Origin: a bacterium UBP14_UBA6098
GTDB taxonomy: Bacteria > UBP14 > UBA6098
Reading direction: 5' to 3'
NCBI GenBank assembly: GCA_002428525.1
Contig: DIWU01000030.1
Coordinates: 42,009-106,008, forward strand
DNA: 64,000 nucleotides
Shown piece by piece: positions 9,287 to 54,195 of this stretch. A model generated the notes under the pieces. The model did no database searches. It was not told where the DNA came from and saw only the letters and a list, made by a program, of their open reading frames with translations. Numbering within the stretch: position 1 is the stretch's first letter; each line of letters begins with the position of its first letter. Made by a program: the position numbers and the translations under genes.

Positions 9287-11212
9287 ATGCGTAAATTATT
9301 ATTGCTTTTCGTGTTTTCGCTGATGTGCTCTGCCGCGTTCGCCGAGTCCATCGATGTCGTCAATAAAATCGGCGGCTTCAGAAACTCGCAGGCATGCGGA
9401 ATTCACAACGGAGTTGTCTATATTATCGACTATTATTATATTATCAGCTATAGCCCGACCTCCGGAGCTATCCTCGACACACTCAATTTCGGCGAGTATG
9501 TCCGAAACCTCGATTTTAAGGATAACACCGCGGTTGTTATCGGCATCGCAAATGTATATTTAATCGATATTTCAAACCCTTCGGCAATGATCGAACTCTA
9601 CAGAATCCCCCATGGGGGAACCTCCGGCTGGGATGTCGATGTTAGCGGCGATTATGCCTTTATCGCTTTACAAAGTCACCTCGGAATATATCGTATCTTC
9701 GGATCTACCTTGGCCTCGGTGGGCAGTTTTATCCCCCCCTCGGCCTTCCCGATGGCAAGATCGATTGCAGTGGCAGGCAACACCGCCTATGCCGGCCTCG
9801 GTAATTCTGGCATCGCCGCTCTCGATATCAGCACTCCCTCGTCGCCGTCTTTGCTTATGAGCGCGGACACTCCGGGAAACACCCTCGACCTGAAAATCGC
9901 CGGTGATGTCCTTGTTTGTTGCGATGGCGCCTATGTCGGCTCGGACACGACGAGTGTCCGATTCTTCGGAATTCCCTCTCCGACAACACTTTCCCCGCTC
10001 GGTTCATGGATTGCCCCCACAAACAGCGATGCAAGAGGGAGTTTCGTCGTTGGAAACAGGCTCGCCCTCGCCGATGGCGAAGGCGGAATCCGCGTGATCG
10101 ACTTCTCGACGCCCTCGAGCCCGGTTCAGGTTGTTCATCGCGATTTTCCGATCGATATTACCGATGTCTGCGTCTCGGGCACCGATATGTTCGCAACCGG
10201 CAGGGACACCTTCTATATTATGACCACCGACGCGTTCGAGCCGGATACCGGTTCGGAGCCGATTAGAATCACAGGCGTGCAACCGTCCCACGGTCTGCTT
10301 ACAGCCTGCGCGCCGATAGTCGAATTCGCCTTCACCGCGGGAAGCGAATCGATCGACAATAGCTCGCTTCAGATCTCAGCTCTTGGGCGAACATTCCGCG
10401 CCTCGGACTCCGAGGTCTCAATCACTGCAAGCTCAATCAGTCTCGACCTCTCGGGAAGCGCTATCGCCCCGCTCGACACAATCTGCGCCGTTCTGGATTC
10501 CCTCGCCGACGCCACCGGAACGCCCGCGATTAATCTTGGCATCTCGACATGTTTCCTATATGACGCCTTTGCGCCCCTGCCGGCTGTCTCCTACGGCCAC
10601 GCCGGCGATGTCCTTCACCCGGATTCTATAAGCATCTCCGGGACAATCCGCGATATCGGCCACGCCGGCTTCGTCGAGGACAGCTTCAAGGTTGTCGTCC
10701 GCGGAATCTCCTATGGCACCTCCGGAGCCTACCTCGACTTCGATCCGCCGAATTTCACATGCCGTCCCATGGGAACCTTCAATAATGGAGATGTCGTCGA
10801 TGTCTGTATCCGCGCAATCGACGCAGTCAGCGCCGCTAATTGCGGCCCGAACCGCCTCGACAGTTGCTGGACCTTCCGCGTTAGCTCCGAAGGAATCGAC
10901 GAAATCGCCTCCTTGCCCAAAAACCTATCGATCTCGGCTTGGCCGTCCCCCTTCAACTCCTCAGTGAATATCGCCCTCTCACCCCCCGGCGTCGGCGCGA
11001 GCAATGCTCGCTACGAGGCAACCGAAATCGAAATCTTCGATATTCACGGAAGGCTCGTCACCGGTCGCCTCGTGACGAATAGCGCTGAGGCGCTACTCGG
11101 GCCGACGCCGACAGTTTGGCACCCGGACGAGTCGTTGCCTTCGGGAGTATATCTTATAAGGGCGCGTTTGGGCGATCTATCCGCCGAGGCGAGGGTTATA
11201 TATTTGAAATAG
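9287..11212 (+). CDS. secreted LVIVD-repeat beta-propeller protein with a T9SS C-terminal sorting domain
   Basis: Signal peptide MRKLLLLFVFSLMCSAAFA. Repeated Y(A/F)...G..IIDIS.PS.P blades (LVIVD-like). C-terminus SAWPSPFNSS...IEIFDIHGRLV...GVYLIRARLGDLSAEARVIYLK matches the Por/T9SS CTD pattern. Confidence 0.65.
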   Translation: MRKLLLLFVFSLMCSAAFAESIDVVNKIGGFRNSQACGIHNGVVYIIDYYYIISYSPTSGAILDTLNFGEYVRNLDFKDNTAVVIGIANVYLIDISNPSAMIELYRIPHGGTSGWDVDVSGDYAFIALQSHLGIYRIFGSTLASVGSFIPPSAFPMARSIAVAGNTAYAGLGNSGIAALDISTPSSPSLLMSADTPGNTLDLKIAGDVLVCCDGAYVGSDTTSVRFFGIPSPTTLSPLGSWIAPTNSDARGSFVVGNRLALADGEGGIRVIDFSTPSSPVQVVHRDFPIDITDVCVSGTDMFATGRDTFYIMTTDAFEPDTGSEPIRITGVQPSHGLLTACAPIVEFAFTAGSESIDNSSLQISALGRTFRASDSEVSITASSISLDLSGSAIAPLDTICAVLDSLADATGTPAINLGISTCFLYDAFAPLPAVSYGHAGDVLHPDSISISGTIRDIGHAGFVEDSFKVVVRGISYGTSGAYLDFDPPNFTCRPMGTFNNGDVVDVCIRAIDAVSAANCGPNRLDSCWTFRVSSEGIDEIASLPKNLSISAWPSPFNSSVNIALSPPGVGASNARYEATEIEIFDIHGRLVTGRLVTNSAEALLGPTPTVWHPDESLPSGVYLIRARLGDLSAEARVIYLK

Positions 11213-14294: not shown

Positions 14295-14468
14295 GCGGGG
14301 CGTCGCGGCCCCTCCCGAAAGGCAAAATAATTGTCATTTCAAACTACAATCGCCGCGGCCTTTCGGGTCGGGGCCCTCGGCGAGCCGAGGTAAAATTGTC
14401 TTAAAAAGCAACCTGTTCTATCGGCTCGCCGACGACGACGCGCTCCCGCGCGTCGTGCGACGCCCCGC
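14295..14468. repeat. copy E (variant) of the GGGGCGTCG-TIR hairpin-rich intergenic element family
   Basis: Terminal inverted repeats GCGGGGCGTCGC (14295-14306) and GCGACGCCCCGC (14457-14468). The interior holds several imperfect palindromes (e.g. ggcccctcccgaaagg / cctttcgggtcggggcc). Intergenic, between two minus-strand genes. Confidence 0.4.
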
Positions 14469-14477
14469 GAGCTCGGT

Positions 14478-17132
14478 TTAGCGAAGTAGCACAGCGCGGG
14501 AGATAGCGCCGGAATTCTTTGCTCGAACGAAATAGACGCCTGAAGGAACGGGGCTATTCTCGAAGTCGCAACCATTCCACAACGACCCGCGGGAGCAGTC
14601 CTTTATTTCGTTGATAACTTTACCGGAAATATCCATTATCTCGACATCGCCTGCAGATTTAATCATGCAGGAGGCGTTGAAGGGATTCGGGGTTACAGAT
14701 ATCTGCATCTCATCCGGCAGATCGGCCTCCGAGATAGCCATGAGTTGCACGAAGACTTGCCAGCAATAGCTCGTGTCGTTCGGGCCGTAAAAATCGGGGT
14801 TATCGGCGAGATTAGCGCATATTATCACCTCGGAGCCGTCACCGAAGGAAGCCCCGAAGGCGCCGCTCTGAAGAACTACCGTATCACCGCGGGCGGTTAG
14901 GCCGGCAGTCGCCCTCTCTATCAGAGATAGCGAAAGGTCGAAGAACTCGAAGGAAACCCTTTCCGGCGAAACAAGCATACCGGCCGGCGCATCGGTGGCG
15001 ATTATCCAGACATCGTCGGTGCCAACATGGAGCGTGTCTCCGGCCCTCGGAGAGAAATCGCCCGAAACCGGCGGACGAAGATCGACCGCGAAGCTGAAGG
15101 CAAGCGGCGCATCGAGCCCTGAGCCGATCATATCCTCCACGCTAATCAGGTTTACTATTACAACTTGCTCGTGGGTGTAGGTCTCGAAGGGAGTGATAGT
15201 CAGCATCGAGTCCGCGAAGCTGAGCGCCGAACTCGGCCATGAATAAACCACCCCGCCGACTGAAACCTCGATCGAGCTAACATCGATTCCATCTGGATCG
15301 ACGATCTTAAGGACTATCTCGGGGTTCCCGCTCGCGACGACATCGCCCGCGCGCGGATGCATCGCCGAGGCGTTCGGCCCGCCGCTGGGATTCACAAAGA
15401 AATCCCAGCTTTCAATAGTGAAATTCGGATCGCAGACATCCGGCGAGTCCCCAACGCGAATTCGAACACTGTGCGTTCCGACCGTCGAGGCCGCAGTATC
15501 GGGCGAGATTCTCACAGTCCAACCGTCCCAGCTCAGATGGCTGTCCGGATAGCGCAATGTGTCGCCGTTGTAAACAACCATTAAGGTCGAGATATCTATT
15601 CCGGTGATTGCGTCCGTAAGGTTCGCCGAAATCGAGGCCGGAAACTCCGTCAGTATTTGGCCGCGACGGGGAATTAGGTTGTCGATAACCGGCGGAATTA
15701 AATCGGCCGTGAATGACCAGCTCACAGGCGACTCAATATGGTTTCCGAAATTATCCGCCACATCGACGAGGCTGACAACGATAGGCACTCCGCTCGGCCA
15801 ATCGGTCGAGGGGGTATATCGGAGCGTGTCGCCGAGGAAAACGATCGAGGAGCTGTATCCGTTGATCGTGTCCGTTCCGTTGAAAAAACGAACCGAGTAG
15901 GGATCGACGCCGTCGGTGTCTTGGACGAGAAGCTTTACCGGATAGCGGTTGCAGGAGGTGACAATCGATGGTGTTGGCTGAATTATCGTCACATCGGGCG
16001 CCCCCGAGGTAGTCATCGCGGGAATCCTCGTCGCGAATATATCCGAGGTGACATCGCGCGCATCCTCCCATATTATAAGGTGATGCTCGCCGTTACAAAC
16101 CGATCGCGGCTTCTGCTGAGTGCCGTCCGCTGTGGAAACCGCCAGCTCCGGCCCCATCAATGTCCCGCTCGTGGCCACCCTTTGCCCGTAAATATCGGAA
16201 AGAACATCCCGATTGTCCTGCCAAACAACAAGATAGCCCACGCCATCGAACGACACCGACGGCCGAACCTGATTGCCCTCGGCCGAGGAGATCGGGAAGG
16301 GAAGCCCGACCGGCGAGCCGGCTGAGTCCAGAAGTATTCCATATATATCTCTGCCGGTCGTCGCACCGGCGCGCTCGTATGCCACGAGATAACCCCCGCC
16401 GCCGTGAGCTATCGAGGCAAAACTCTCCTCTTGGGTGACATTGGTCACGGCGTAAATCCCCGTGGTATCGACTCCGCTGACTCCATAGCTCACCTTTTGC
16501 GCATAAAGGCCCTTGCCTCCCGCGAGCGAATCCTCGAAAACAACCACCCACTCGGAGGCACCCCGCGCGATCGCCGGGTTTTTCTCGTCACCGTCGGCAA
16601 GACCCATCTGCTTGGGAATCGTGGTGCTCCGGTCGTCCTCCGTGACTGCCAAGTAAATATCGCTGACCCCGAAAACCCGAACCTCCCAAACCACTAAAAA
16701 CGCCCCGGTCATACCGGAGATACGGACATTCTGAATCGTGCCGTCAACTGTGACTATAGCGAAATTGTCGAGGTAGAGCGAGCCGTCGGGGTTAACGAGA
16801 TTGCCATAGATCTGGTATCCGGTTCTGCGGTCGAACCAAGCGTCGAGGTAATAGGTGCCGCCCCATGCGACATCGGGGATTTTCTGAAGGCCGGTGAAGG
16901 CGCACGCCGGCGACTCAAGCCCCGGAAGACTGCCGTCGGCCGTCACAATTCGGCCGTAAATATTCGGATTGCCGGTTCCGGCCCGCGCATCCTCCCAAGT
17001 CGCGAAAAAATCGGTGCCGTCGGTGGCCACTGCAGGAACGATCTGCTGGCCGGCCGCAGTCGATATCGCAATATCCTGTCCAAAGGCAAACCCAACAAAT
17101 AGTATTAACAAAAAAACCGCCGCTGACCTCAT
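14478..17132 (-). CDS. large secreted repeat protein with T9SS C-terminal sorting domain (~884 aa)
   Basis: Signal peptide MRSAAVFLLILFVGFAFGQ. The Met at 17132 has an AAGGGAGAG RBS; the ORF track extends to 17165. C-terminus ISVTPNPFNASCMIKS...VEIMDISGKVI...SGVYFVRAKNSGAISRAVLLR is a T9SS CTD. Confidence 0.6.
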   Translation of the reverse strand: MRSAAVFLLILFVGFAFGQDIAISTAAGQQIVPAVATDGTDFFATWEDARAGTGNPNIYGRIVTADGSLPGLESPACAFTGLQKIPDVAWGGTYYLDAWFDRRTGYQIYGNLVNPDGSLYLDNFAIVTVDGTIQNVRISGMTGAFLVVWEVRVFGVSDIYLAVTEDDRSTTIPKQMGLADGDEKNPAIARGASEWVVVFEDSLAGGKGLYAQKVSYGVSGVDTTGIYAVTNVTQEESFASIAHGGGGYLVAYERAGATTGRDIYGILLDSAGSPVGLPFPISSAEGNQVRPSVSFDGVGYLVVWQDNRDVLSDIYGQRVATSGTLMGPELAVSTADGTQQKPRSVCNGEHHLIIWEDARDVTSDIFATRIPAMTTSGAPDVTIIQPTPSIVTSCNRYPVKLLVQDTDGVDPYSVRFFNGTDTINGYSSSIVFLGDTLRYTPSTDWPSGVPIVVSLVDVADNFGNHIESPVSWSFTADLIPPVIDNLIPRRGQILTEFPASISANLTDAITGIDISTLMVVYNGDTLRYPDSHLSWDGWTVRISPDTAASTVGTHSVRIRVGDSPDVCDPNFTIESWDFFVNPSGGPNASAMHPRAGDVVASGNPEIVLKIVDPDGIDVSSIEVSVGGVVYSWPSSALSFADSMLTITPFETYTHEQVVIVNLISVEDMIGSGLDAPLAFSFAVDLRPPVSGDFSPRAGDTLHVGTDDVWIIATDAPAGMLVSPERVSFEFFDLSLSLIERATAGLTARGDTVVLQSGAFGASFGDGSEVIICANLADNPDFYGPNDTSYCWQVFVQLMAISEADLPDEMQISVTPNPFNASCMIKSAGDVEIMDISGKVINEIKDCSRGSLWNGCDFENSPVPSGVYFVRAKNSGAISRAVLLR

Positions 17133-17379: not shown

Positions 17380-17408
17380 TTGACATTTTAGAAACCGGCA
17401 TATAATAT
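17380..17408 (+). promoter_or_regulatory. near-consensus sigma70-like promoter upstream of the terminase gene
   Basis: TTGACA 17380-17385, then TATAAT 17401-17406 (15-nt spacer) or TAATAT 17403-17408 (17-nt spacer). ~36 nt upstream of the ATG at 17444 with a GAGGA RBS. Confidence 0.4.
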
Positions 17409-17443: not shown

Positions 17444-18919
17444 ATGCCAAATAATCTCGCCTTCGAACTCGATAATCCCCCGACCCACCCGGCCGACAAC
17501 CCGCGCCGCTCCCCCGAAGAGGCCGTCCTCGACCGCATCGGCCGAATCATCGTCAACCCGGACTTCGACCTCAAGGAGCTGAAAGACGCCGCCGATGTCC
17601 TAAAAAGGCTCGCCGAAACCCCTGAAACCGCGCTGAATTCGCGCCCGGAGCCCTTCTCGCCCTCGCTCTTCCCCCATCAGGCCGAGTTCGTCAAATCGCG
17701 CGCGCGTTTTTCGGCCTTCATCGGCGGCGTCCGAAGCGGGAAAACCTACTCCGGCACCGCAAAGGCACTCTCCCGCGCCTTCCTTCTGCCGACCGTCGGC
17801 GCCGCTGTCGCCCCGACGGTCGGTATGGCGCGCGATGTCCTCGTCCCGCAATATGCCGAGCTTGCCGCAAACCGAATCGCCAAATGGACATCCTCCACCG
17901 GCGATATGATATTGGACAACGGTAGCAAGATACTCTTCCGTAGCGCCGACAACCCCGAGCGGCTTATGGGCCTTACCCTCGACTGGTTCCACCTCGACGA
18001 GGCGGCCCAGCTTCCCCGCCGCGTTTGGGAGGTGCTCGTCAACCGCACAATCTCCACCGGCGGCCCGGGGTTTATTACAACCACTCCGCGCGGCAAAAAC
18101 TGGGTTTGGCGGCTGGTCGAGGAATGGCGCGACGACCCCGACGCCTCGGCCTTCTTCGCGAAAACCTCCGACAACCCGCTCATCGATTCGGCCGAGATCG
18201 ACCGCGCCCGTCGCCAGCTCGACTCGCGCTATTTCCGCCAACAATTCGAGGCCAGCTTCGAGGAGGAGGGCACGCGCGTCTATGAAGACTTCACCCCGCA
18301 ACTCCATGTCCTCGAAGAGTCTTGGCAGATTCGCGACAACTGGCCGATCTACATCGGTGTCGATTTCGGCTGGACGCACCCCTCCGCGCTCATCTGGGCA
18401 CAACTCTCGCCCGAGGGCAAATGGTTCATCTTCGACGAGCTTGTCGAACAGCACCTTCGCCTCGAACGCCTCGCCGCGGCGATCTTGGGCGATCCGGTCA
18501 CCCTCGCCGGCAGGACATTCCGCGCGCGCATTCCCTACTCGAAGGTCGAGCGCATCATCTCCGGCATCGAGGGCCTGCAGTCGAGACAGGAATCCGGCGG
18601 AGAGTCAGCGCTGTCGGCGCTTTCGAGCTTAGGAATCTCCCGCGCGGTCGCGGCGCGCTCCTCGATCTTGTCGGGGATAAACGCCGTCCGGGCAAAACTA
18701 CTCTCCGCAGACAGCGAGGTGAAACTCTTCGTCGATCCGCGATGCCGTCGCCTCATCGACGATTTCTCGGGCTACAAATACCCCGAGGATCGAAATAGCG
18801 AGCCGGATGGCGAGCTTCCCCTCAAGGACGGCATCCACGACCACACAATGGACGCCCTGCGCTACATGATCGAGTTCGTCACGCCGCTTCGCCAAACAGA
18901 CTGGCGGTTCGGATTCTAA
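17444..18919 (+). CDS. phage terminase large subunit (TerL)
   Basis: Walker A FIGGVRSGKTYSG, Walker B LDWFHLDEAAQ, and a C-terminal RNase-H-like nuclease motif DGIHDHTMDALRYMI. 491 aa. Confidence 0.85.
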   Translation: MPNNLAFELDNPPTHPADNPRRSPEEAVLDRIGRIIVNPDFDLKELKDAADVLKRLAETPETALNSRPEPFSPSLFPHQAEFVKSRARFSAFIGGVRSGKTYSGTAKALSRAFLLPTVGAAVAPTVGMARDVLVPQYAELAANRIAKWTSSTGDMILDNGSKILFRSADNPERLMGLTLDWFHLDEAAQLPRRVWEVLVNRTISTGGPGFITTTPRGKNWVWRLVEEWRDDPDASAFFAKTSDNPLIDSAEIDRARRQLDSRYFRQQFEASFEEEGTRVYEDFTPQLHVLEESWQIRDNWPIYIGVDFGWTHPSALIWAQLSPEGKWFIFDELVEQHLRLERLAAAILGDPVTLAGRTFRARIPYSKVERIISGIEGLQSRQESGGESALSALSSLGISRAVAARSSILSGINAVRAKLLSADSEVKLFVDPRCRRLIDDFSGYKYPEDRNSEPDGELPLKDGIHDHTMDALRYMIEFVTPLRQTDWRFGF

Positions 18920-19038
18920 TTTCCTCCCCTGAAGAGCGAGTTCAACAGCCCCGCACGGTTCGAACACTATTCTTCCGCGGACATGCAAAACTCAAATCGC
19001 GTTAGCTAAAAAAATTATCACTTTAAAAAAGGAGTGCG

Positions 19039-20460
19039 ATGATGCCAAAATCCCGCGCGGCCGAATGGGTCGAGAGGACCCTTTTAGCCGCTAAACTCGC
19101 CGTCCGAAAGGATTTCAAGGACGAGATCGCCAAACGGATCGACTATTACAACGATAGGCAGATCCCCTATCTGCTCGAGCTCCTCGAACAAAAATACCGC
19201 GATGCCGACGCCCTCGCGCTCGAGCCCGAGTTCGTCAATGTCATCAAGACCATCGTCGATGGAACCGCGCTGGTCTATCGCTCAGGCGCGGCGCGAGTCC
19301 TGACCGGCGGCTCCGGCGAGGTTTCGCCGGAGGAGAAAGCCCTTTGGGACTGGCTGATGTCCGCCTCGAATTACGAGGCGACGATGAAAACCGTCCACCG
19401 CATGGTCAAACTCTGCCGAACCGTGCTTGTCAAACCCTCATTCCGCGGCGGCCGAATCAAGTTCGATATACTGACCCCGGATCAGGTCGATATCGTCCAA
19501 GACCCGGAAGACCCGACCGAGGCGAGCGCGATTATATACACCCGCCCCCGCGCCGAGACGCTCTGCGCCGACGAGCTCGAGTTTCACTACTGGGACGCGG
19601 CGTCCTACCGCCGCTTCACCGCCGACGGCGTCATCCTCCGAAGCCCGAACAACCCAGAGGGCCTCAACCCCTACGGCGTTCTGCCCTTCGTTCGCTTCAC
19701 CGAAACGCTCCCGCTGTCGAGCTTCTTCGTCGATGCCGGCGAGGACCTCACAGTCGTGCAGGACGCAATCAACCTCAAGCTGGTTCAGCTGAACCATCTG
19801 CTGAAGATGCAGTCCTTCAGCGTGCCGGTGCTCATCGGCTACGACGGCAAGGAGAAGGTTGTCGTCGCGCCCGGGCGGCCGATATGCATCCCCCTCGGCC
19901 AGATCGGCGAGGGCAAGCCCGACTTCAAGTTCGTCTCACCGAACCCGGCAATCTCCGAGTGCCTCGAAGCGATCCGCGAGTCGATCGCGCGGCTCTCGAA
20001 CAGCTATCACATCAGCTCCGCGAGCTACTCTATCAGCGGAAGCCAAAAGAGCGGCTTCGCGCTGGTGATGGAGAACCTCGCCCTTTTCGAGGATCGCCAG
20101 AATGCAGTGCCCTTCTATGAGGACGCCGAGGAGCGGATGTTTGACCTTGTCAAGCAGATTTGGAACACGCACAGCGGCTCGCTTCCGGCCTCGCATCCCT
20201 TCGCGGGAAAGGTCTTCAGCCCGGCAACGCGCCTCTCCGTGACTATCCACGAAGCAAGACTCCCCCAGTCCGCCTCCGATGAGGCCGACGAATGGAAGTT
20301 CCTTATCGAAAACGGCATGGCAACGCCCATCGATTATATGATGATACGTTTTCAGATGACGCGCGAAGAGGCCGAGGCGAAATTCCGCGAGAACCTGCAA
20401 TGGCGCGAGGCAATCGCTTCGACACAAAACATTGACAAATCTCAGGAGGAGACCGAATGA
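19039..20460 (+). CDS. putative phage portal protein
   Basis: 473 aa acidic protein immediately after TerL and before a scaffold-like gene (conserved head-module order). No motif-level proof. Confidence 0.5.
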   Translation: MMPKSRAAEWVERTLLAAKLAVRKDFKDEIAKRIDYYNDRQIPYLLELLEQKYRDADALALEPEFVNVIKTIVDGTALVYRSGAARVLTGGSGEVSPEEKALWDWLMSASNYEATMKTVHRMVKLCRTVLVKPSFRGGRIKFDILTPDQVDIVQDPEDPTEASAIIYTRPRAETLCADELEFHYWDAASYRRFTADGVILRSPNNPEGLNPYGVLPFVRFTETLPLSSFFVDAGEDLTVVQDAINLKLVQLNHLLKMQSFSVPVLIGYDGKEKVVVAPGRPICIPLGQIGEGKPDFKFVSPNPAISECLEAIRESIARLSNSYHISSASYSISGSQKSGFALVMENLALFEDRQNAVPFYEDAEERMFDLVKQIWNTHSGSLPASHPFAGKVFSPATRLSVTIHEARLPQSASDEADEWKFLIENGMATPIDYMMIRFQMTREEAEAKFRENLQWREAIASTQNIDKSQEETE

Positions 20461-20951
20461 ACGAAGCCTTCGACACCCAAGATGACGATCAGATAATCGA
20501 CCAGCTTGCGGCCAATCCGCAGGACATCGCAAAGCTACTCGCCGCTAAGCGCAAGGCCAATGCCGAGGCCAAGCTCTTCCGCGAGCGCCTCGAGACCGCC
20601 GAGGAGGCCCTCAAAGAACGCGAAACCCTCTCCTCTGAAGTCGAGCGGCTTCGCGCGCGCGGCCTTCGCGACGCCTTCTTCATCGAGGCCCTGCAAGAGC
20701 GAATCAAGCCCAACCGCCTCGAAGCCGCCTTCAAGATCGCGGATTTAGACCTCACCGCGGAGGATCCCGCCACCACTGCCAAGGCCGCCCTCGGAAGGCT
20801 CAAGGAGGGCTTCCCCGAACTCTTCGCCGAGACGCCCCCGCCACCGGAGGTTGACAACGCGGGCTTCTCCCGCGCAAAGCCCGATCCGCTTACCGCCGCA
20901 AAGGCCTCCGGAAACACGATGGCCATGCTGAAGGCCCTTCGCTCGCAGTAA
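20457..20951 (+). CDS. putative phage scaffolding protein
   Basis: 164 aa, highly charged Ala/Glu/Arg/Lys-rich predicted coiled coil. Its start overlaps the portal stop (ATGA). Position between portal and capsid-like gene. Confidence 0.35.
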   Translation: MNEAFDTQDDDQIIDQLAANPQDIAKLLAAKRKANAEAKLFRERLETAEEALKERETLSSEVERLRARGLRDAFFIEALQERIKPNRLEAAFKIADLDLTAEDPATTAKAALGRLKEGFPELFAETPPPPEVDNAGFSRAKPDPLTAAKASGNTMAMLKALRSQ

Positions 20952-20965
20952 AACTACCCGCCCTC

Positions 20966-21109
20966 CCGTGGCGTCGGGATTTCTGCGCTCTCGGGAAAGC
21001 TCGCTTTCCCCGAGAGCCCAGAAATCGCCGGCCGGCCGGGCAAAAACACCGTTAATTCGGACATCGCCGCTCCGGCCGGACGGCCCGCGCATGCGCGGCC
21101 GACGCCCCC
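20966..21109. repeat. copy A of the GGGGGCGTCGG-TIR hairpin-rich element (MITE/REP-like), upstream of the capsid-like gene
   Basis: Left end ccgtgGCGTCGG (degenerate TIR), right end CCGACGCCCCC 21099-21109. Internal perfect palindrome gatttctgcgctctcgggaaagc / gctttccccgagagc.cagaaatc and a gcgcatgcgc palindrome. ~85% identical to copy B. Confidence 0.6.
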
Positions 21110-21150
21110 GGAAAGCGCCGTTCAACTAAAAAACCAACCGAAAGGAACAA

Positions 21151-22284
21151 ATGAACACATCATACGACTTCGCGAACCTCAAGCGCGACCTTGGGGAAAC
21201 CTTCGAGACGCTGTCAAAGGGCAGACACAACCTATTGTCGGTCATCCCGATTGTCGGGCAGGCCAAGAACTACAAGCACGAGTGGCTCGAGGATGTCATC
21301 GAGCCGACTATCGACGCCCTCGACGGCGCGGTCCTCGACACTGACCTTACTATCGATGTTGACAACGGCTCGAAGTTCGCGGTGGGCGACATCCTCGCCT
21401 TCGACGGCTATGACGAGGTCGTCCGCGTGACGGCAATCACCGACGACGCTCTGACGGTCTCCCGCGCCTATGGCGGCACCTCGGCGGTCGGCATGGCCGA
21501 TGACACCGTCGTCCGCGTCGTTTCGCGCCCCCGTTCGGAGGGAAGCGATCCGGGCTTCGACGCCGTAGCCGAGCCCTCGAGCGAGTTCAACTTCACGCAG
21601 ATTTTCGACCGGACGGCCAAGGTCTCGAAGTCCGCTGTAGCGGCCGAGCACCTCGCGATCGACGATCTCGTCGATTTCCATGTCAAGCACCACCTCGAGC
21701 TACTTCAGATCGAGATGAACGCCGCGGCGATCTACGGCCGCCGCTACGCCAACACCTCCGACGCCTCGATTCCGCGGACAATGGGCGGCATCCTCTACTT
21801 CCTCGATCAGGCCGGCGGGAATGTCATCGACAATTCCGCCGCGGCGCTTTCCGCCGAGGACCTGAACGACCTCATCGAGATGATCGCCGCAGATGGCGGC
21901 AGGCCGGACCTTCTCGTCTGCAACACGATTCAGGCGCGCGCTATCTCGGCCTTCAATGCCGAGTCCGGCTCGGCGCCCATTGTCAGAACCACTTGGTCGG
22001 ATGAGCGCACCGGCGGCGCGGTTTACGAGTTCGTCGGCGACCTGCCGCTCGGCATGGTCGAACGAATCGTCGTCGATACCGCCTTCCCGCAGGACAAGAT
22101 CGCCCTGCTCGACTCGTCGAAGCTCGCACTCGTGCCGCTCCGCGGGCGCGCCTTCCGCGACCTGCCCGCGACGCCCTCCGAGGCCTCGGACTACATCGCC
22201 CGCAGGATTATCGGCGAATACACCCTCGAGGTCAGAAACGCCGCCTTCGCGCACGGCCTCCTCAAGAACCTCGCTGTGAGCTAA
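21151..22284 (+). CDS. putative phage major capsid protein
   Basis: 377 aa, strong RBS, follows the scaffold-like gene. Size and position fit an HK97-fold major capsid protein. No direct motif confirmation. Confidence 0.45.
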   Translation: MNTSYDFANLKRDLGETFETLSKGRHNLLSVIPIVGQAKNYKHEWLEDVIEPTIDALDGAVLDTDLTIDVDNGSKFAVGDILAFDGYDEVVRVTAITDDALTVSRAYGGTSAVGMADDTVVRVVSRPRSEGSDPGFDAVAEPSSEFNFTQIFDRTAKVSKSAVAAEHLAIDDLVDFHVKHHLELLQIEMNAAAIYGRRYANTSDASIPRTMGGILYFLDQAGGNVIDNSAAALSAEDLNDLIEMIAADGGRPDLLVCNTIQARAISAFNAESGSAPIVRTTWSDERTGGAVYEFVGDLPLGMVERIVVDTAFPQDKIALLDSSKLALVPLRGRAFRDLPATPSEASDYIARRIIGEYTLEVRNAAFAHGLLKNLAVS

Positions 22285-22294
22285 GACTCCCCCC

Positions 22295-22437
22295 GGGGGC
22301 GTCGGGATTCCTGCGCTCTCGGGAAAGCGAGCTTTTCCGAGAGCGCAGAAATCGCCGGCCGGCCGGGCGAAAATCTCGCTCGATTCGGCCATCTCTGCTC
22401 CGGCCGGACGGCCCGCGCATGCGCGGCCGACGCCCCC
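22295..22437. repeat. copy B of the GGGGGCGTCGG-TIR hairpin-rich element, downstream of the capsid-like gene
   Basis: Perfect 11-bp TIRs GGGGGCGTCGG (22295-22305) and CCGACGCCCCC (22427-22437). Same internal palindromes as copy A, but the central loop is the reverse complement (gcgagc vs gctcgc). Confidence 0.6.
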
Positions 22438-22464
22438 TTGGCGTTCAACCGAAAAACACTTTGA

Positions 22465-22848
22465 ATGGAGAAAAAAATGGACTGGGAGAACTCGGTTTTA
22501 TTTGACATCAACGATTTGTATGACTTCGAGCCGGAGGTTTTGGAGTCGCTCGACCGCATCGACCGGCGCACAGCAGTTCGCGGGGTTTTGGCCTCGCGGA
22601 TTCGCAGGGCCTACAGCGGCCTCGGCGCGACGGACATTCTATCGCGGATAAAGAACCCCGAAGTTTTGCGCGAACCTTCGATTTTCCTCAACCTCTCGCT
22701 GGTTTTCAACGCCAATTCCACAATCGGCGGGATTTACGCGCAGAAGGCCTCGGACTATTCGGAGCGTTTCGAGGCCTCGATTCGCTCGGCGCTCGCCCTT
22801 CTCGAATTCGAGGGGCTGGAGAAGACCGGCGTCTTGATTGTCCGCTAA
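22465..22848 (+). CDS. hypothetical phage-cluster protein (127 aa)
   Basis: ORF with an AGGAG-like RBS directly after element B, co-oriented with the head genes. Candidate head-completion or connector protein by position only. Confidence 0.4.
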   Translation: MEKKMDWENSVLFDINDLYDFEPEVLESLDRIDRRTAVRGVLASRIRRAYSGLGATDILSRIKNPEVLREPSIFLNLSLVFNANSTIGGIYAQKASDYSERFEASIRSALALLEFEGLEKTGVLIVR

Positions 22849-22870
22849 CCCTTATTCAGAAAGGATTCCT

Positions 22871-23332
22871 ATGGAAAAATTGAATATCGACCGCGCTTTG
22901 GACGAGATTATATCCGGCTTCGGCGCACTCGACGACAGGAATAACAAGCTCGTCCAATCCTCGATTCGCGGATTTCGCCGTATGAGGGACATCGCCGTCT
23001 CGGAATACCCGATCGCTATGACCGGCCTCGTTTCGGCGGAAATTGGCCCGCAGGAGCATTTCTGCGAAGCGCTATCGGTTTTCCTGACCCGTGGTCGCGA
23101 GGCCGCCGAAAATTCGGCAAACCTCCGCGCCGCCCTTGTAGATCGCCTCTCCGAGGGTTGGGCGGATTTCGACATAACAAACATCGTCATCGGCGAGCTG
23201 TTCCCCGGTTTCACAGAGTCGGCCGAATCGGACGCCCTGCCCGAGGGGGCCTATCTCGCCTCATGGCTCGGAATCGAGCGGCCGATAGAGGGCTTTTATT
23301 TGGCATTCAACATCGCGCTGGACGCGGAATAG
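22871..23332 (+). CDS. hypothetical phage-cluster protein (~153 aa)
   Basis: The ORF track starts at 22838. The ATG at 22871 (MEKLNIDRAL) follows AGGATTCC and is the likelier start. No motifs. Confidence 0.4.
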   Translation: MEKLNIDRALDEIISGFGALDDRNNKLVQSSIRGFRRMRDIAVSEYPIAMTGLVSAEIGPQEHFCEALSVFLTRGREAAENSANLRAALVDRLSEGWADFDITNIVIGELFPGFTESAESDALPEGAYLASWLGIERPIEGFYLAFNIALDAE

Positions 23333-23341
23333 GAGATCAAA

Positions 23342-23650
23342 GTGAAATATTCCATATTAGTCTTCATGCTCGCGATCTCGCTCGTGGCATTTTGGGTCGA
23401 GATTCCCGCCGATTCGGCGCGCACACTCTCCGCCCCCGACTCGACAGGCACCTTCCCGATCGACTCGACAGCCGTTTTCGTTTCCGATACCTCGCTGAAC
23501 GGACTTGTCCGCCCCGCGGTAATTATCTCTTTCTCGAAAGGCATCCCGTATCTGCTCCAAGAACTGGGCTATTGCGCGCCTCCGGACTCTTCGCGCCGCT
23601 TTTTCGCCCTTTGCTCGGAGGCCGAAAGGTGGTTCCAATGGCAAGAATAA
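23342..23650 (+). CDS. small secreted/membrane-anchored hypothetical protein (102 aa, GTG start)
   Basis: N-terminal hydrophobic segment ILVFMLAISLVAFWV. Overlaps the next gene's start by 13 nt. Confidence 0.35.
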   Translation: MKYSILVFMLAISLVAFWVEIPADSARTLSAPDSTGTFPIDSTAVFVSDTSLNGLVRPAVIISFSKGIPYLLQELGYCAPPDSSRRFFALCSEAERWFQWQE

Positions 23651-24900
23651 TCGCACTGCTCTTAATTGTCGCTTCCTGTTTTTCAGCGACATACTGGATT
23701 CATTCATCTCTCGGAAACGACGCGTGGCCGGGCACTTCGCCGGATTCGGCCTTCGCGAGCCTCGGCGCCGCCACCGCCTTAATGACACAATGCGATTTCG
23801 CCTTCGCTTGCGGTTCGTTCAACGAATCCCTTACGCTCTCGAATAACAAGCACGAGGGTTGCACGTTCGCCGCATGGCCGGACAGCGCTGACTGGCTCAT
23901 CGACGGCGATTCACTTCGCACTTGCGCCATTGTCGGCGATTATTGCGGCCAACCCAATGAATTAGCCGTATCTTTTTACAATTTAATTGCAGTATATCCT
24001 GCCAATTATAGCATTATGTTAGGTGAATCCAGTTCCGGCTTCTTCAAGAATTGCTCTATAACCTCATACTCAGCCGGAATCTATACGAATCATTCACAAC
24101 TGGTGATGGATTCTTGTTCCGTTTATGCTGAAACATATTGCATCTTCTTGAATGGAAATCTGGCAACAATAACCAATTCATCATTGACATCTGTTTCCGA
24201 TTATTGCATCAAGGAAACTAACAACCCCTCGACACTGATCTCGACCGGAAATATCTTCCAAGGTTACGGCGGAATATACTGCTACAACGGCCTCGCCGCG
24301 AGGCATTACAGCGATATCTTCAGAGTTTCCACTCGAGCGATCTATGCCTATCGTAATTCACCTCAATACTTCGAACTTGTCAAATGCCTCTTCGTTGGCG
24401 GTGAATTCGGCCTCAGTTCGACCTATTACAACGCCACTCAACCCTTCTTCTCCATTGTCAACTGTTGCTTCGATTCTATTGATAATGCCCTCAGCTTCGT
24501 CGGACTTCGGGGAGCTGTAAATATAATCAATACTATTTTCATAAATTGTAACAAGGCGATCGATTCACCGGATCTCATCAATGCCGCTGGCCTCGTCATC
24601 CATTCATGTGGCACAGATACAACAGGCCTCAAGCAAACGATATCCTACCATAGCTTCGACCCCGAACTCGATTTTATGAAGATCGCTCGATCGGATAGCT
24701 GTAAATATATCGGAGTGAGTTCCGCCTTCGGTCTCGATGCACCTGTTTACGACGATCTCGGTCATACCTTCTTCGATTCCGCCGGACAAACCGCAATAGG
24801 CTGGAGAAGCCCATATTCCGTGTATCTGTGGAGTTGCCCCGACATCCCTTCAAATCAAAACAAATGGGGGATCAATTCCCCCGGAAAGAGAATTAAATGA
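23638..24900 (+). CDS. secreted Cys/Asn/Ser-rich beta-helix-like protein (420 aa); candidate receptor-binding or tail-spike-like protein
   Basis: The ATG at 23638 (MARIIALLLIVASCFSATYW, signal-peptide-like) follows an AAGGTGG RBS. The ORF-track 5' extension (23158-23637) overlaps two other genes and looks like non-coding read-through. Repetitive N..S/T and Cys-containing short beta-strand repeats (NCSITSYSAGIYTNHSQLVMDSCSVYAETYCIFLNGNLATITNSSL). GC drops sharply from ~23900. Confidence 0.5.
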   Translation: MARIIALLLIVASCFSATYWIHSSLGNDAWPGTSPDSAFASLGAATALMTQCDFAFACGSFNESLTLSNNKHEGCTFAAWPDSADWLIDGDSLRTCAIVGDYCGQPNELAVSFYNLIAVYPANYSIMLGESSSGFFKNCSITSYSAGIYTNHSQLVMDSCSVYAETYCIFLNGNLATITNSSLTSVSDYCIKETNNPSTLISTGNIFQGYGGIYCYNGLAARHYSDIFRVSTRAIYAYRNSPQYFELVKCLFVGGEFGLSSTYYNATQPFFSIVNCCFDSIDNALSFVGLRGAVNIINTIFINCNKAIDSPDLINAAGLVIHSCGTDTTGLKQTISYHSFDPELDFMKIARSDSCKYIGVSSAFGLDAPVYDDLGHTFFDSAGQTAIGWRSPYSVYLWSCPDIPSNQNKWGINSPGKRIK

Positions 24901-25658
24901 AATATTTAGTTTTTTTACTGTTTTTCGTTGCGGCAGTCTTCGGATTTATATATCCAATAACTGTCGATCTCGTGGGGTCTGATGGGCGAACTGTCGCGGC
25001 CGATTCAGCCTTCTGCACAGTCCTCGCAAATAGCGAAACACTCCTCACGCCGACCCGTATGTCATCTGTCGCTCGATCGACTACCATCGACTTCGATTTT
25101 CCCGAAACCTTGTGGTTCGCAACAGCGATCATTTCCGCTTTCTGGGAGGATACGCTTTTCGATACTGTAGCATTTACTATACCATCAGCCACAAACCCCT
25201 TTATGTTGACATCCATGCTATCCAATACACTCTCGGAAGCCCATGGTTCCGGTTTATGGCAATCTAAAGCAATACTCCCATTCTTGTTGACAATGGAAGA
25301 GAATGAGATTGTTGCTACGTTATCAGGGAGTTCCTCAAGGCCTATCTCTGTAATCAGAGGTGATAGTAAATGTGTGGATATTTATCTTGTCGATTCTTCA
25401 GGCGAAGCCATTGATATTACCGGTGCATCTGCCGTCTTCACAGTAAAGCAACGAGCAAGCGATATTACTGCGTATATCGTTGACACGCTCGAACTCATAG
25501 AGCCGGCAGAGGGTTTTCTCCGACTCGATCTAAATCCGCTACAAACATCGATCGTTCCTCAGAGCTATTCGGCAGATATTCAACTTTCTTTCCCAGATAG
25601 CTCAATTGCAACGGTTTGGCAAAATCGTTTCATTGTCCAATGGGATGTAACCCGCTAA
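24897..25658 (+). CDS. secreted hypothetical protein with Ig-like C-terminal region (253 aa)
   Basis: N-terminal signal/anchor MKYLVFLLFFVAAVFGF. Its start overlaps the previous stop (ATGA). Low-GC coding sequence. Confidence 0.45.
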   Translation: MKYLVFLLFFVAAVFGFIYPITVDLVGSDGRTVAADSAFCTVLANSETLLTPTRMSSVARSTTIDFDFPETLWFATAIISAFWEDTLFDTVAFTIPSATNPFMLTSMLSNTLSEAHGSGLWQSKAILPFLLTMEENEIVATLSGSSSRPISVIRGDSKCVDIYLVDSSGEAIDITGASAVFTVKQRASDITAYIVDTLELIEPAEGFLRLDLNPLQTSIVPQSYSADIQLSFPDSSIATVWQNRFIVQWDVTR

Positions 25659-25673
25659 CAAACAGGATTGATC

Positions 25674-25910
25674 ATGTCCGACGAATATCGCAATATCTTT
25701 TGGAAACTCGCGCCAATCGCCCTTTCCGTCTTTCTCGCACTAATCGGAATCGTCTGGGGAATGACATACGCCGAACTTCATTCACGAGTTAACCGTATGG
25801 ACGACATAATCTTAACACAAAAGGAGGCTATTGTTCGCATCGAAGCAAAACTCGATATAATCCTCGAAAGCAATGTCAACCGAAAGGAATTACAATGCAA
25901 AACGTATTAA
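25674..25910 (+). CDS. small single-TM protein, holin-like (78 aa)
   Basis: One hydrophobic helix (LAPIALSVFLALIGIVWGM) followed by a charged tail. ATG at 25674 with an AGGA RBS; the ORF track starts at a TTG at 25668. Lies immediately upstream of a second small TM protein and a lysin. Confidence 0.4.
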   Translation: MSDEYRNIFWKLAPIALSVFLALIGIVWGMTYAELHSRVNRMDDIILTQKEAIVRIEAKLDIILESNVNRKELQCKTY

Positions 25911-26230
25911 CAGCAATCTTAATTAAGGCAATTATACCACTAATTCTCGTCGGAATTGGTTTTTTAGCCGCCAAGTATCTAAAGCCATGGCTCAACCAAA
26001 ACTCCGATCGAATGATCCGCGCGAACGAGATAGCACTTATCGCCGACAGAATCACCGACGAGTTTCTTCTGCTCGCACCGAGTGCCCACTGGAGCGAATG
26101 GATCGATGAGGCTGTCGATCGCTTGATCCTCGCCTGCGGCCTCACCGATGCCGACGAGGCCTCGGCATTAGCACATCGAGAGATAGCTAGCCAGATTATG
26201 AAGAAAAACCTTGCAGGAATTGCAAAATAG
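25895..26230 (+). CDS. small membrane protein, holin/antiholin-like (111 aa)
   Basis: N-terminal TM helix AIIPLILVGIGFLAA. Overlaps the upstream gene by 16 nt and abuts the lysin gene. Confidence 0.4.
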   Translation: MQNVLTAILIKAIIPLILVGIGFLAAKYLKPWLNQNSDRMIRANEIALIADRITDEFLLLAPSAHWSEWIDEAVDRLILACGLTDADEASALAHREIASQIMKKNLAGIAK

Positions 26231-26832
26231 TGCAGTTGCGACAATACTACAATATTGGCGCTTATTATATCATGAAAATAATAGAATATTTGGATGATTT
26301 CAAATATGCAACTGCAAATCTATGGCCAAAACAGGTTGAGAAAGATGAAAACTTCTTTATCTGGTTCGTCGCTCAAGCTATGGCTGAAAGCTCTCTCAAC
26401 CCTCACGCGGTCTCGAGGGTAGGCGCTTGCGGACTGATGCAGATCATGCCGAAAACATGGCACGATATTCGCCTCTATCTGCCGTATCTTAACGAAGATA
26501 TCTTCGATCCGGCCTCGAATATCGAGGGTGGAATCTGGTATGTTCGCTGGTGCTTCGACCGTTTTCAGTTCGTGCGTGACTTTAATGATAGGTTTAAAAT
26601 CGCGCTGTCGTCCTACAACTGTGGGCCTTCGCGGATTCGCAGGTTGTTAGAGCCGTTTGACAATCCAACCTATTTAGCGCTCGAACCCCAGCTCCCTCGC
26701 GAGACCTCGTTTTATATCGAGCGAATAGTTAAATTCCACGATGTATTGCTTAACAATATCAAGCTCGAAATCGAGAATGAAATCAGTCCCGAAGCAGGCT
26801 CTCGGCCGTCTGAGCGACATTCTGCGCAGTGA
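26230..26832 (+). CDS. phage-type lytic transglycosylase (SLT domain) endolysin
   Basis: [26 protein letters not shown] contains the SLT catalytic Glu-Ser and GLMQ motifs. The start is either the GTG at 26230 (overlapping the previous stop) or the ATG at 26272. Its 3' end overlaps the convergent tkt 3' end by 50 nt. Confidence 0.75.
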
Positions 26833-35614: not shown

Positions 35615-35779
35615 CGCGCGGGGGGGCGTCGGCCTCCTTCGGAGGCACGACGGGCCGGAAGACGATCTCGCATTGTGGAACATCCTCGTTCCGGCCCGTC
35701 GTCTGCTTCGCGCCCCGAATTGATCTCGTTAACTCAGCTATTTTTATACGGGGCGCGAAGCGCGACGCCCCCCCGCGGG
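35615..35779. repeat. copy C of the GGGGGCGTCGG-TIR hairpin-rich element
   Basis: Left cgcgcgGGGGGGCGTCGG (35615-35632) and right CGACGCCCCCCCgcggg (35763-35779) terminal inverted repeats. Internal palindromes gcctccttcggaggc, gacgggccggaa...ttccggcccgtc, and cttcgcgccccg...cggggcgcgaag. Confidence 0.5.
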
Positions 35780-48892: not shown

Positions 48893-49018
48893 GGGGGCGT
48901 CGGACGCGCTTCGCGCGTGACGCGCGGCCGGATGAAAAAGCTCCAATTTCAATCGGAAAACTACCTTCCGGCCGCACGGCGATCTCTTTTCCAGAGGAAA
49001 AGAGATCCCGACGCCCCC
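48893..49018. repeat. copy D of the GGGGGCGTCGG-TIR hairpin-rich element
   Basis: Perfect TIRs GGGGGCGTCGG (48893-48903) and CCGACGCCCCC (49008-49018), extended to cgcccgGGGGGCGTCGG / CCGACGCCCCCcggcg. Internal perfect palindrome gatctcttttcc-aga-ggaaaagagatc and ccggcc/ggccgg pairs. Confidence 0.5.
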
Positions 49019-54192: not shown

Positions 54193-54195
54193 GTA

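Follow-up and report, generated by a model that had tools for sequence, protein, structure and literature searches.

Among the dispersed palindromic repeats of bacteria, REP, ERIC, and Correia elements have been described chiefly in Proteobacteria and Firmicutes, and each folds into a single hairpin. In polycistronic transcripts, stable structures that flank or follow a highly expressed cistron, such as the RNase III sites and stem-loops that bound the capsid message in phage late operons (the T7 gene 10 region) and the malE-malF REP element, give that cistron a stability of its own. The REP/BIME elements of Enterobacteria and Pseudomonas, which are associated with RAYT, are abundant GC-rich intergenic palindromes present in both orientations, and they are often co-transcribed and can stabilize upstream mRNA segments against 3′ exonucleases (see PMC3184786). 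The Correia (NEMIS) elements of Neisseria and the ERIC/IRU elements of Enterobacteria are MITEs, intergenic units of ~100 to 160 nt with terminal inverted repeats, which fold stably and are present in some strains and absent from others (see PMC3184786). They are co-transcribed with neighboring genes, and Correia elements are cut by RNase III (see PMC3184786). In the integron mobilization unit (IMU), two identical MITEs surround a cargo and transpose with it as a unit, generating a 5-bp duplication, and the ends of the unit are shared with a known insertion sequence (IS) (PMC3184786). Here, we analyzed a 64,000-nt stretch of bacterial DNA (the window), in which a capsid gene is bracketed by two copies of a structured repeat, and compared the arrangement with these systems.

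Copies A and B around the capsid gene

The gene order around the two copies is that of a TerL-portal-scaffold-capsid operon. The major capsid protein gene (21151 to 22284, plus strand; 377 amino acids, SU10/HK97-type) matches Pfam PF17236 (SU10_MCP, 2e-48) and PHROG 1328 (major head protein, 1e-37), its product is ~33% identical to annotated phage major capsid proteins in tblastn, and an SD-like GAAAGGAA precedes it at 21140 to 21147. These matches and the SD-like motif bear out the sequence-only reading of a "capsid-like" gene with its own ribosome-binding site. Directly upstream of copy A lies a scaffold-like gene (20457 to 20951, plus strand), which matches PHROG 2303 (head scaffolding protein) weakly (1.4e-3) and keeps its position in all orthologous clusters. 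The first gene downstream of copy B (22465 to 22848, plus strand; 127 amino acids) is also present in all of them (123 to 127 amino acids). A sigma-70-like promoter, TTGACA-17-TAATAT (17380 to 17408, plus strand), precedes TerL. No other strong promoter-like site lies ahead of the capsid gene, so that A and B probably share the operon transcript; a promoter and terminator scan found neither kind of site inside either copy. A gene for RNase III lies ~7 kb upstream of the window. No small terminase was found in the head-gene cluster with Pfam, PHROG, and the orthologous clusters, nor any integrase or transposase with Pfam and PHROG. The head-tail cluster possibly encodes a domesticated, gene-transfer-agent-type particle common to Zixibacteria.

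Copy A occupies 20967 to 21109 (43.2 bits, E = 5e-7 with the covariance model R1 described below) and copy B 22295 to 22437 (62.6 bits, E = 3.5e-11). Both are on the plus strand and form direct repeats with a start-to-start spacing of 1,328 nt, so that two structured copies in the same orientation do surround the capsid gene, as the sequence-only reading had proposed. Copy A consists of the 5′ arm of the outer stem P1 (20967 to 20977), three hairpins, H1 (20978 to 21026), H2 (21027 to 21084), and H3 (21085 to 21098), and the P1 3′ arm (21099 to 21109); its 5′ arm is CGTGGCGTCGG, and only 8 bp are paired in the outer stem. In copy B, the corresponding parts are at 22295 to 22305 (P1 5′ arm), 22306 to 22353 (H1), 22354 to 22412 (H2), 22413 to 22426 (H3), and 22427 to 22437 (P1 3′ arm). 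Free energies of the RNA folds were −88.4 kcal/mol for A and −100 kcal/mol for B (z = −6.4 and −7.2 versus shuffled controls), and the single-stranded DNA folds gave z values of −6.7 and −7.8, respectively.

The identity between A and B had been put at ~85%; it is indeed high, but the measured value is slightly higher (87 to 89%), that is, 88.7% across 141 nt by blastn (E = 4e-35) and 87% at 168 aligned positions in a local alignment that runs past the outer stems. This alignment delimits a common unit at 20961 to 21134 for A and 22289 to 22457 for B, in which the likeness runs on past the outer stem for ~25 nt, into a 3′ tail, GCGTTCAAC..AAAAAC. The two copies have a 33-mer in common, which had no chance matches in 100 shuffles, and a 41-nt block is identical between them. 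Sequence comparison also confirmed that A and B are much closer to each other than to any other window copy. Recent duplication or gene conversion, suggested on that ground, ranks among the best-supported proposals, with A and B being the closest pair and alike past the outer stem. Judged from the alignments, a single copy was most likely duplicated locally, or spread by gene conversion, to give the pair. The common 3′ tail could instead represent the end of a subfamily-specific element rather than copied flank; the tail of copy A aligns with the capsid leader of the orthologous locus L123, a leader that carries no inner hairpins. Two adjacent copies are not improbable per se (p of ~0.3, a rough estimate for 5 copies in ~75 spacers).

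A four-armed repeat family of Zixibacteria

The family unit measures 124 to 215 nt and folds into an almost perfectly stacked four-way junction, in which an outer stem of 11 to 12 bp encloses the three hairpins. The conserved sequence of this stem, GGGGGCGTCGG/CCGACGCCCCC, forms terminal inverted repeats in all copies, and its arms are often prolonged by imperfect inverted flanks. H1 ranges from 24 to 70 nt and H3 from 14 to 62 nt; H2 is always 56 to 61 nt long and consists of a basal stem of roughly 14 bp and a variable apical part. The three further copies to which A and B had been compared, C, D, and E, were all found in the window. Copy E (14296 to 14467, plus strand; 172 nt, 42.9 bits) lies between two minus-strand chromosomal genes, copy C (35622 to 35772, minus strand; 151 nt, 53.6 bits) between convergent chromosomal genes, and copy D (48893 to 49018, minus strand; 64.8 bits), a 126-nt core with ~30-nt imperfect inverted-repeat extensions, between GWxTD and TPR genes. 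A sixth candidate, F (10985 to 11112, minus strand; 59.2 bits), has the four-way-junction fold and is ambiguous; it sits within the open reading frame (ORF) 9287 to 11212, in the stretch coding for a T9SS C-terminal sorting domain. The window holds five clean copies (A to E) plus the ambiguous F, and a ~17-kb extension of the source contig yielded no further copy, giving 5 to 6 copies in ~81 kb of this genome. Window copies occur in both orientations, some of them beside ordinary chromosomal genes; the repeat family is not capsid-specific.

The covariance model R1 was built solely from 18 copies of the Zixibacteria MAG SpSt-1142 (alignment A3). It recovered every window copy with E values of 1e-11 to 1e-6, and it also matched copies in two more Zixibacteria genomes, L126 and L130. 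At least ~44 model-positive copies were present in the SpSt-1142/OMKS01/Ga0129302 contigs, and 3 copies in a low-GC Zixibacteria contig had an unchanged outer stem. Across genomes of 36 to 60% GC, the outer-stem sequence is invariant and the hairpins vary freely. Stem covariation is strong: 98.6% of the alignment cells are paired, and double compensatory changes were seen in 17 of 45 pairs versus 6.5 ± 1.4 after shuffling (0 of 500 shuffles reached the observed value) and 1 to 5 in slid controls. G-U cells are rare (4/809), and both strands fold about equally well, neither being preferred.

The element pattern matched 117 times in genomes and 70 times in metagenomes, mostly by chance in high-GC genomes, and the matches tested failed the covariance model. 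A metagenome scan returned no match to an A/B-specific 22-mer. With Rfam 15, there were no matches at the gathering threshold in the window and five related loci, and an E-value scan of 20900 to 22500 gave only matches far below threshold. The INPHARED phage collection contained no DNA match to the element, and IMG/VR no match to its pattern. We describe a previously undescribed family of four-armed palindromic repeats, which is dispersed in Zixibacteria genomes, is specific to them, and keeps its structure on both strands.

Clean copies lie between genes, whether these are co-directional, convergent, or divergent (divergent promoter spacers included), and of those in co-directional spacers, five run with transcription and four against it. 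Given this range of orientations and the presence of copies in divergent promoter spacers, most family members cannot share one transcription-linked function. The GWxTD-TPR spacer is 277 nt long with copy D in the window versus 56 nt without a copy in the L133 ortholog. The family has two hallmarks of a MITE, namely, terminal inverted repeats (the 11- to 12-bp arms) around a short noncoding core, and multiple dispersed copies that are present or absent at orthologous sites, as with copy D. No direct repeat was detected at the core boundaries of 23 copies, where the flanks form more inverted repeats and the true ends are uncertain. Neither a transposase, nor a RAYT gene, nor a parent IS was found in ~81 kb of the source genome or beside the copies examined. 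At L025, two inverted copies flank a flavoprotein operon, not a transposase, and at L186, a lipoprotein-like ORF without a family match is bracketed by 97%-identical direct copies. With tens of copies per genome, in either orientation and present or absent between genomes, the family behaves like a MITE/REP-type element. The suggestion that a MITE had inserted twice is among the best-supported options for A and B: they are part of a dispersed intergenic family whose copies point in both directions in several Zixibacteria genomes.

The comparison with described repeats shows both likenesses and differences. Like REP/BIME, the copies here are abundant GC-rich intergenic palindromes in both orientations, but REP units are single hairpins of ~20 to 40 nt with a conserved GTAG end, whereas those here are four-helix units of 124 to 215 nt with a different stem. 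GTAG is absent from the outer stem, and the only place with GTAG/CTAC is the interior of H2 in the SpSt-1142 subfamily. The resemblance to Correia and ERIC elements lies in size, intergenic position, terminal inverted repeats, stable folding, and presence or absence between strains. These elements, however, form one long hairpin, are alike in sequence from copy to copy, and have TA target duplications; here, the fold is cloverleaf-like with three hairpins, there is little sequence conservation outside the outer stem, and no target duplications were seen.

Capsid flanks in orthologous clusters and the probable role of A and B

A comparison with homologous clusters, which the sequence-only reading had advised, gave a divided answer: gene order is unchanged in the orthologous Zixibacteria capsid clusters, which lack full elements, and this is part of the outcome that the reading had named as refuting, but a stable hairpin still stands at each capsid flank. 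Such a hairpin is present in each capsid-flanking spacer of L123, L124, L126, and L130 (z = −2 to −6.7); for the unstructured TerL-portal spacer, z is −0.05. In roughly 600 kb of Zixibacteria DNA, we found ~7 simple hairpins with outer-stem-like arms, 3 of which coincide exactly with a capsid flank (on both sides in L123 and downstream in L126). A capsid-flank hairpin of L126 carries an A-tract and a T-tract and resembles an intrinsic terminator. The capsid gene of SpSt-1142 is also bracketed by direct copies, in that case of a different 43-nt repeat. Other repeat families also occupy capsid-flanking spacers.

We hold, with moderate confidence, that A and B are a MITE/REP-like dispersed repeat, locally duplicated, which sits at conserved hairpin positions and probably stabilizes or delimits the capsid mRNA segment. 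A and B fill sites that are marked by a stable hairpin in all orthologous head-gene clusters, in some of them with an identical stem. Within a polycistronic TerL-to-tail transcript, they would most likely serve as RNA-level barriers, the very stable stems blocking exonucleases and/or attracting RNase III, and the capsid mRNA segment could then accumulate independently of its neighbors. A capsid mRNA segment protected by stem-loops, one of the options in the sequence-only reading, is plausible from the position and stability of the structures, and it gains indirect support from the stable capsid-flank hairpins in every orthologous cluster and the unstructured TerL-portal spacer. The T7 gene 10 and malE-malF structures likewise flank or follow a highly expressed cistron; they are single-locus regulatory structures, whereas A and B are members of a genome-wide repeat family whose function we infer. 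It appears unlikely to us that the elements form a new class of selected, protein-recognized modules, with an invariant outer stem and freely co-varying arms that stay palindromic on both strands, and that the outer-stem hairpins at the capsid flanks predate the divergence of these lineages and have been kept as an integral part of control or recognition instead of arriving by chance insertion.

Several observations would also fit neutral, selfish insertion, whereby A and B reached the two longest operon spacers by insertion or duplication and leave capsid expression unaffected. The family adjoins unrelated chromosomal genes whichever way its copies point, the capsid clusters of other Zixibacteria function in unchanged gene order without full elements, and capsid-flanking spacers have been colonized by other repeats too. 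We nevertheless rate this explanation as rather unlikely, given the positional conservation of hairpins at both capsid flanks next to an unstructured TerL-portal spacer, the strong enrichment of outer-stem-like solo hairpins exactly there, and the renewed bracketing of the SpSt-1142 capsid gene by another repeat. Transcription terminators or attenuators, which would reduce read-through before and after the capsid gene and were also put forward in the sequence-only reading, proved a weak option and are hardly probable: the structures are very stable and directly follow stop codons, and the L126 counterpart has terminator-like tracts, but A and B have no U-tract, family copies stand in divergent promoter spacers in both orientations, and termination ahead of the capsid gene would lower the output of the virion's most abundant protein. 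With no T-run after A or B and no site there in the terminator scan, an intrinsic (Rho-independent) terminator was rejected. As for sites read by a dedicated protein that serves the particle or DNA transactions (for example, signals for packaging or uptake, or sites bound by gyrase or in the nucleoid), with the outer stem as the putative binding site, the invariance of this stem amid freely changing hairpins and a cluster devoid of a small terminase would be in keeping with them; the idea draws on conservation, no protein partner was found, and the elements are absent from the phage collections, making it most improbable.

A single gene between two near-identical direct copies, the similar case at L186, and the documented mobilization of IMU-type composites by paired MITEs (PMC3184786) could be taken to mean that the capsid gene is a mobilizable or exchangeable cassette, whether IMU-like or circular at a recombination site. 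We consider this very unlikely. The capsid gene has a constant position in all orthologous clusters, with or without elements, and therefore did not arrive as a cassette; deletions, circle junctions, and rearranged variants are all absent from the record, the cluster is devoid of integrase and transposase, and no flanking duplication was seen. Inversion or replacement of the capsid gene, as envisaged from the sequence, found no support either: A and B are direct repeats, and recombination between them would delete, not invert, the segment. The locus resembles IMU in that a gene is bracketed by near-identical copies of a small structured repeat; unlike in IMU, the gene here occupies its ancestral site, with no duplication and no parent IS detected. 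An IMU-like composite unit was rejected on the constant capsid position and the lack of any variant arrangement on record. Integron attC sites with gene cassettes were also rejected, the ends GGGGGCGTCGG not being GTTRRRY core sites and the copies lying in both orientations; the only tyrosine recombinase (51612 to 52451) is 29 kb away, in conserved chromosomal synteny. Capsid-only public contigs of 1.2 to 1.36 kb are not excised circles, since both their ends fall inside the 41-nt block identical between A and B and upstream contigs stop at the same point; these short contigs are k-mer assembly breaks in that block. The A/B repeats account for the assembly breaks near the capsid gene in these genomes.

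Implications for Zixibacteria and for annotation

The family described here comes from an uncultured phylum, and what it conserves is a three-hairpin four-way-junction architecture with an 11-bp stem. Compensatory variation of the arms on both strands argues for selection or a templating mechanism acting on the structure, and the same pattern of structure conservation argues for a putative protein that reads the outer stem. For annotation, the locus calls for caution, in that brackets of repeats should not be read as phage-specific regulatory or recombination sites. The capsid-flank hairpins, conserved in position, offer a testable case of stoichiometry control through the stability of an mRNA segment, in a head-tail cluster that is compact and possibly domesticated.

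Two direct copies of a structured element around the capsid gene

The sequence-only reading had described a capsid-like gene bracketed by two similar copies of an element in the same orientation, and this description proved correct. Copy A (20967-21109) and copy B (22295-22437), both 143 nt and on the + strand, are spaced 1328 nt apart and are 87-89% identical: blastn gave 88.7% over 141 nt (E=4e-35), and local alignment gave 87%, with the similarity spanning 20961-21134 and 22289-22457. A 33-mer common to the two copies was absent from shuffled sequence. The ORF between them (21151-22284) encodes an SU10/HK97-type major capsid protein (Pfam, 2e-48; PHROG, 1e-37), with ~33% identity to annotated phage capsid genes, and its closest homologues are found in Zixibacteria. 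Upstream lie the genes for the large terminase (TerL, 17444-18919) and an SPP1-type portal (19039-20460) and a scaffold-like gene (20457-20951).

Both copies fold into a four-way junction with no or almost no unpaired junction bases, in which an outer stem (P1), formed by GGGGGCGTCGG paired with CCGACGCCCCC, encloses three hairpins of 48-49 nt (H1), 58-59 nt (H2), and 14 nt (H3). The RNA folding energies are -88 kcal/mol for A and -100 kcal/mol for B (z = -6.4 and -7.2 versus dinucleotide shuffles). The complementary strand folds equally well, and DNA parameters gave the same picture.

The window, whose source contig is ENA ERZ27315036 k141_400765, is bacterial chromosome, carrying genes for ribosomal proteins S10 and L3, Mur ligase, PheT, aspartokinase, and aspartate-semialdehyde dehydrogenase, and three further copies with P1 and three hairpins sit between ordinary chromosomal genes: E (14296-14467), C (35622-35772), and D (48893-49018). 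Two of these three are oriented opposite to A and B; all three match A and B in architecture, although the hairpin sequences show no relation. The element is not confined to the surroundings of the capsid gene.

A dispersed repeat family with a maintained fold

When one genome per species was scanned with a pattern, the matches were mostly chance ones in high-GC genomes, and at least 17 loci came from a single metagenome-assembled genome, Candidatus Zixiibacteriota SpSt-1142. Its 18 copies, ~130 nt each and present in both orientations, form the same four-way junction. A covariance model built from these 18 copies only scored the window copies at 64.8 bits (D), 62.6 bits (B), 53.6 bits (C), 43.2 bits (A), and 42.9 bits (E), and it also recovered copies with a variant outer stem in two Zixibacteria contigs (L126 and L130). 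Applied to the matches of a metagenome scan, the model yielded ~44 copies in OMKS01/Ga0129302 contigs, which represent an SpSt-1142-type genome, and three further copies with an exactly conserved outer stem in a contig of 35-41% GC. Soil and actinobacterial pattern matches failed the model and were rejected as family members. P1 is invariant inside the scanned sets partly because the search pattern required it; this does not apply to its reappearance in the window copies, which were found independently, or in the low-GC genome.

In the 18-copy alignment, standard pairs occupy 98.6% of cells, and 17 of the 45 pairs show compensatory double changes, compared with 6.5 ± 1.4 in shuffled controls (0 of 500 reached 17) and 1-5 in slid-partner controls. 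A five-base block of H1 takes at least 10 different sequences, each time with a matching complement, next to an invariant CTGCGATTT/AAATCGCAG motif. Over all copies, H2 is constant at 56-61 nt, and H1 and H3 range over 24-70 nt and 14-62 nt. These data showed that A and B belong to a dispersed repeat family whose structure is under constraint. Since G-U pairs are rare (4 of 809 cells) and no consistent difference in folding separates the two strands, the constraint looks symmetric at the DNA level or strand independent, unlike that on a one-strand RNA gene.

All family copies are intergenic, apart from one candidate, and lie between genes that are co-directional, convergent, or divergent; among the co-directional cases, five follow the direction of transcription and four oppose it. 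The exception, at 10985-11112 on the - strand (59.2 bits, four-way junction, z = -6.6, outer-stem-like arms), falls inside an ORF (9287-11212), in the part that codes for a T9SS C-terminal sorting domain, where its H2 loop encodes the EIEIFDIHGRLV strand; this candidate may be an element accommodated in frame or a chance resemblance. At 14483-14492, 16 nt from copy E, lies AGCGAAGTAG, which is the H2 arm motif in the SpSt-1142 subfamily and may be what is left of a further copy.

An empty site orthologous to that of copy D was found in the comparison locus L133, where a 56-nt spacer separates the GWxTD and TPR genes and the conserved TTGACA promoter of the latter comes right after the GWxTD stop codon. 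Between the same landmarks, the window carries ~190 nt, made up of the copy D core and imperfect inverted extensions. The family is dispersed and probably mobile. It works like REP/BIME, ERIC, and Correia repeats, but it lacks the single 20- to 40-nt palindrome with GTAG that defines REPs, and the defining tests for integron attC sites and intrinsic terminators were negative, as was that of every Rfam family, none of which matched the element. The suggestion of a MITE inserted twice fits the inverted ends, small size, copy number, and presence/absence pattern; however, no target-site duplication was visible at the copies examined, and the search for a parent revealed no transposase in the window, its 17 kb of extensions, or the surroundings of those copies. 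We are highly confident that A and B belong to a MITE/REP-like family. Phage collections held no copy of the element and our literature search found no description of the family, and as far as these tools show, a four-way junction with a fixed outer stem is undescribed.

The capsid cluster and its flanks in related genomes

The capsid gene belongs to a 12-gene cluster (17444-26832) that starts with TerL, portal, scaffold, and capsid, continues with seven genes that are small or unknown, and ends with an SLT lysozyme. The same genes recur one for one, at differing chromosomal locations, in at least five other Zixibacteria assemblies (loci L123, L124, L126, L128, and L130), and the cluster contains no integrase, small terminase, or replication genes. 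The cluster looks like a gene-transfer-agent-type or recently exchanged element. Between genomes, capsid identity is 72-84%, versus only ~55% to the closest relatives for the housekeeping GWxTD protein. In L126, MurJ and an AI-2E transporter gene lie between TerL and the portal gene. The composition of the head-tail cluster is mosaic: GC3 is 0.79-0.85 in the head genes (17444-22284), against a chromosomal average of ~0.68, and 0.42-0.54 in the tail-side genes (23158-26832), with a total GC of 0.446 in 24001-26000. Elsewhere in the window, pfkB and pheT, direct neighbors in the related locus L132, are separated by an inserted type II restriction-modification pair (53467-55032) that consists of an N6/N4 methylase and an EcoO109I-like endonuclease (Pfam, 4.6e-87). 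The low GC3 of the pair (0.42-0.44 versus ~0.7 in neighbors) suggests horizontal acquisition.

No full element was found beside the capsid gene in L123, L124, L126, or L128 (the SpSt-1142 capsid cluster), so the full-element bracket is lineage specific; in L130, a full variant element lies upstream of the capsid gene. The sequence-only reading had named related clusters with unchanged gene order and expression but no elements as a finding against its account of the bracket; this outcome was observed in part, with respect to gene order. Each capsid-flanking spacer of every cluster contains a stable hairpin (z = -2 to -6.7), and the window's own spacer between TerL and portal is unstructured (z = -0.05). 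The scaffold-capsid spacer of L123 carries GGGAGGCGTCA-cgaaaattc-TGACGCCCCCC at the orthologous position, which is the outer stem without inner hairpins, and the flanking leader is alignable to that of the window. Moreover, ~600 kb of Zixibacteria DNA contained ~7 simple hairpins whose arms resemble the outer stem, and three of these flank a capsid gene (both sides in L123, downstream side in L126). Together, the conserved flank hairpins, the L123 stem, and these solo hairpins argue against a purely accidental arrangement.

The SpSt-1142 capsid gene itself lies between direct copies of another repeat of 43 nt, the double hairpin CACCCCCTTGTCAAAGGGKGTCGCCCGTARGGCGGGGGGATTA (L128 1193-1235 and 2550-2592; 95% identical), which also occurs elsewhere in that genome (L018 20-63). 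Tandem CTAACAC heptamers directly precede the ribosome-binding sites of several cluster genes there (L128 545-610, 1274-1310, and about 6230-6300). A third repeat family, with the hairpin arm GTCATTGCGAG / CTCGCAATGAC, is found in capsid-cluster spacers of several Zixibacteria genomes (L124 9-160 and 5112-5215; L128 404 and 6762; L130 129-290 and 1213-1560).

Origin and possible role of the A/B pair

In sequence, A and B are much closer to each other than to C, D, or E, and their similarity runs ~25 nt beyond the outer stem. Since the 3' tail of A is alignable to the L123 capsid leader, B may have been copied from A with some flank, or the two may have been homogenized; this agrees with the proposed recent duplication or gene conversion, although the shared tail could instead be a subfamily-specific end. 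A second bracketed gene was found in L186 (Ga0272443_10000990, 889-2320), where two direct copies of the family element with 97% identity, differing at only 4-5 positions, two of which form one compensatory pair, surround one low-GC ORF (1139-2128; 329 amino acids, lipoprotein signal, no family match). The family may therefore tend to duplicate locally in direct orientation.

The proposal that the capsid segment inverts is not borne out, since A and B are direct copies whose recombination would delete the gene, and public contigs record no deletion or hybrid junction. Public short contigs limited to the capsid gene run from 21080 to about 22430, and upstream-derived ones stop at 21098-21101; all these breakpoints fall within a 41-nt block that A and B share without a mismatch, as is typical of a repeat in de Bruijn assembly. 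Terminators or attenuators, also proposed, are disfavored because A and B lack terminator features.

A and B occupy positions where relatives keep stable hairpins, in an operon whose only strong promoter-like site precedes TerL. REPs and Correia elements (PMC3184786), like phage late-operon stem-loops, give RNA segments a stability of their own. When transcribed, the A and B structures (-90 to -100 kcal/mol) would block exonucleases and would be substrates for RNase III, which the source genome encodes. We tentatively propose such an RNA-level role, through which the capsid segment of the polycistronic RNA would gain its own stability.
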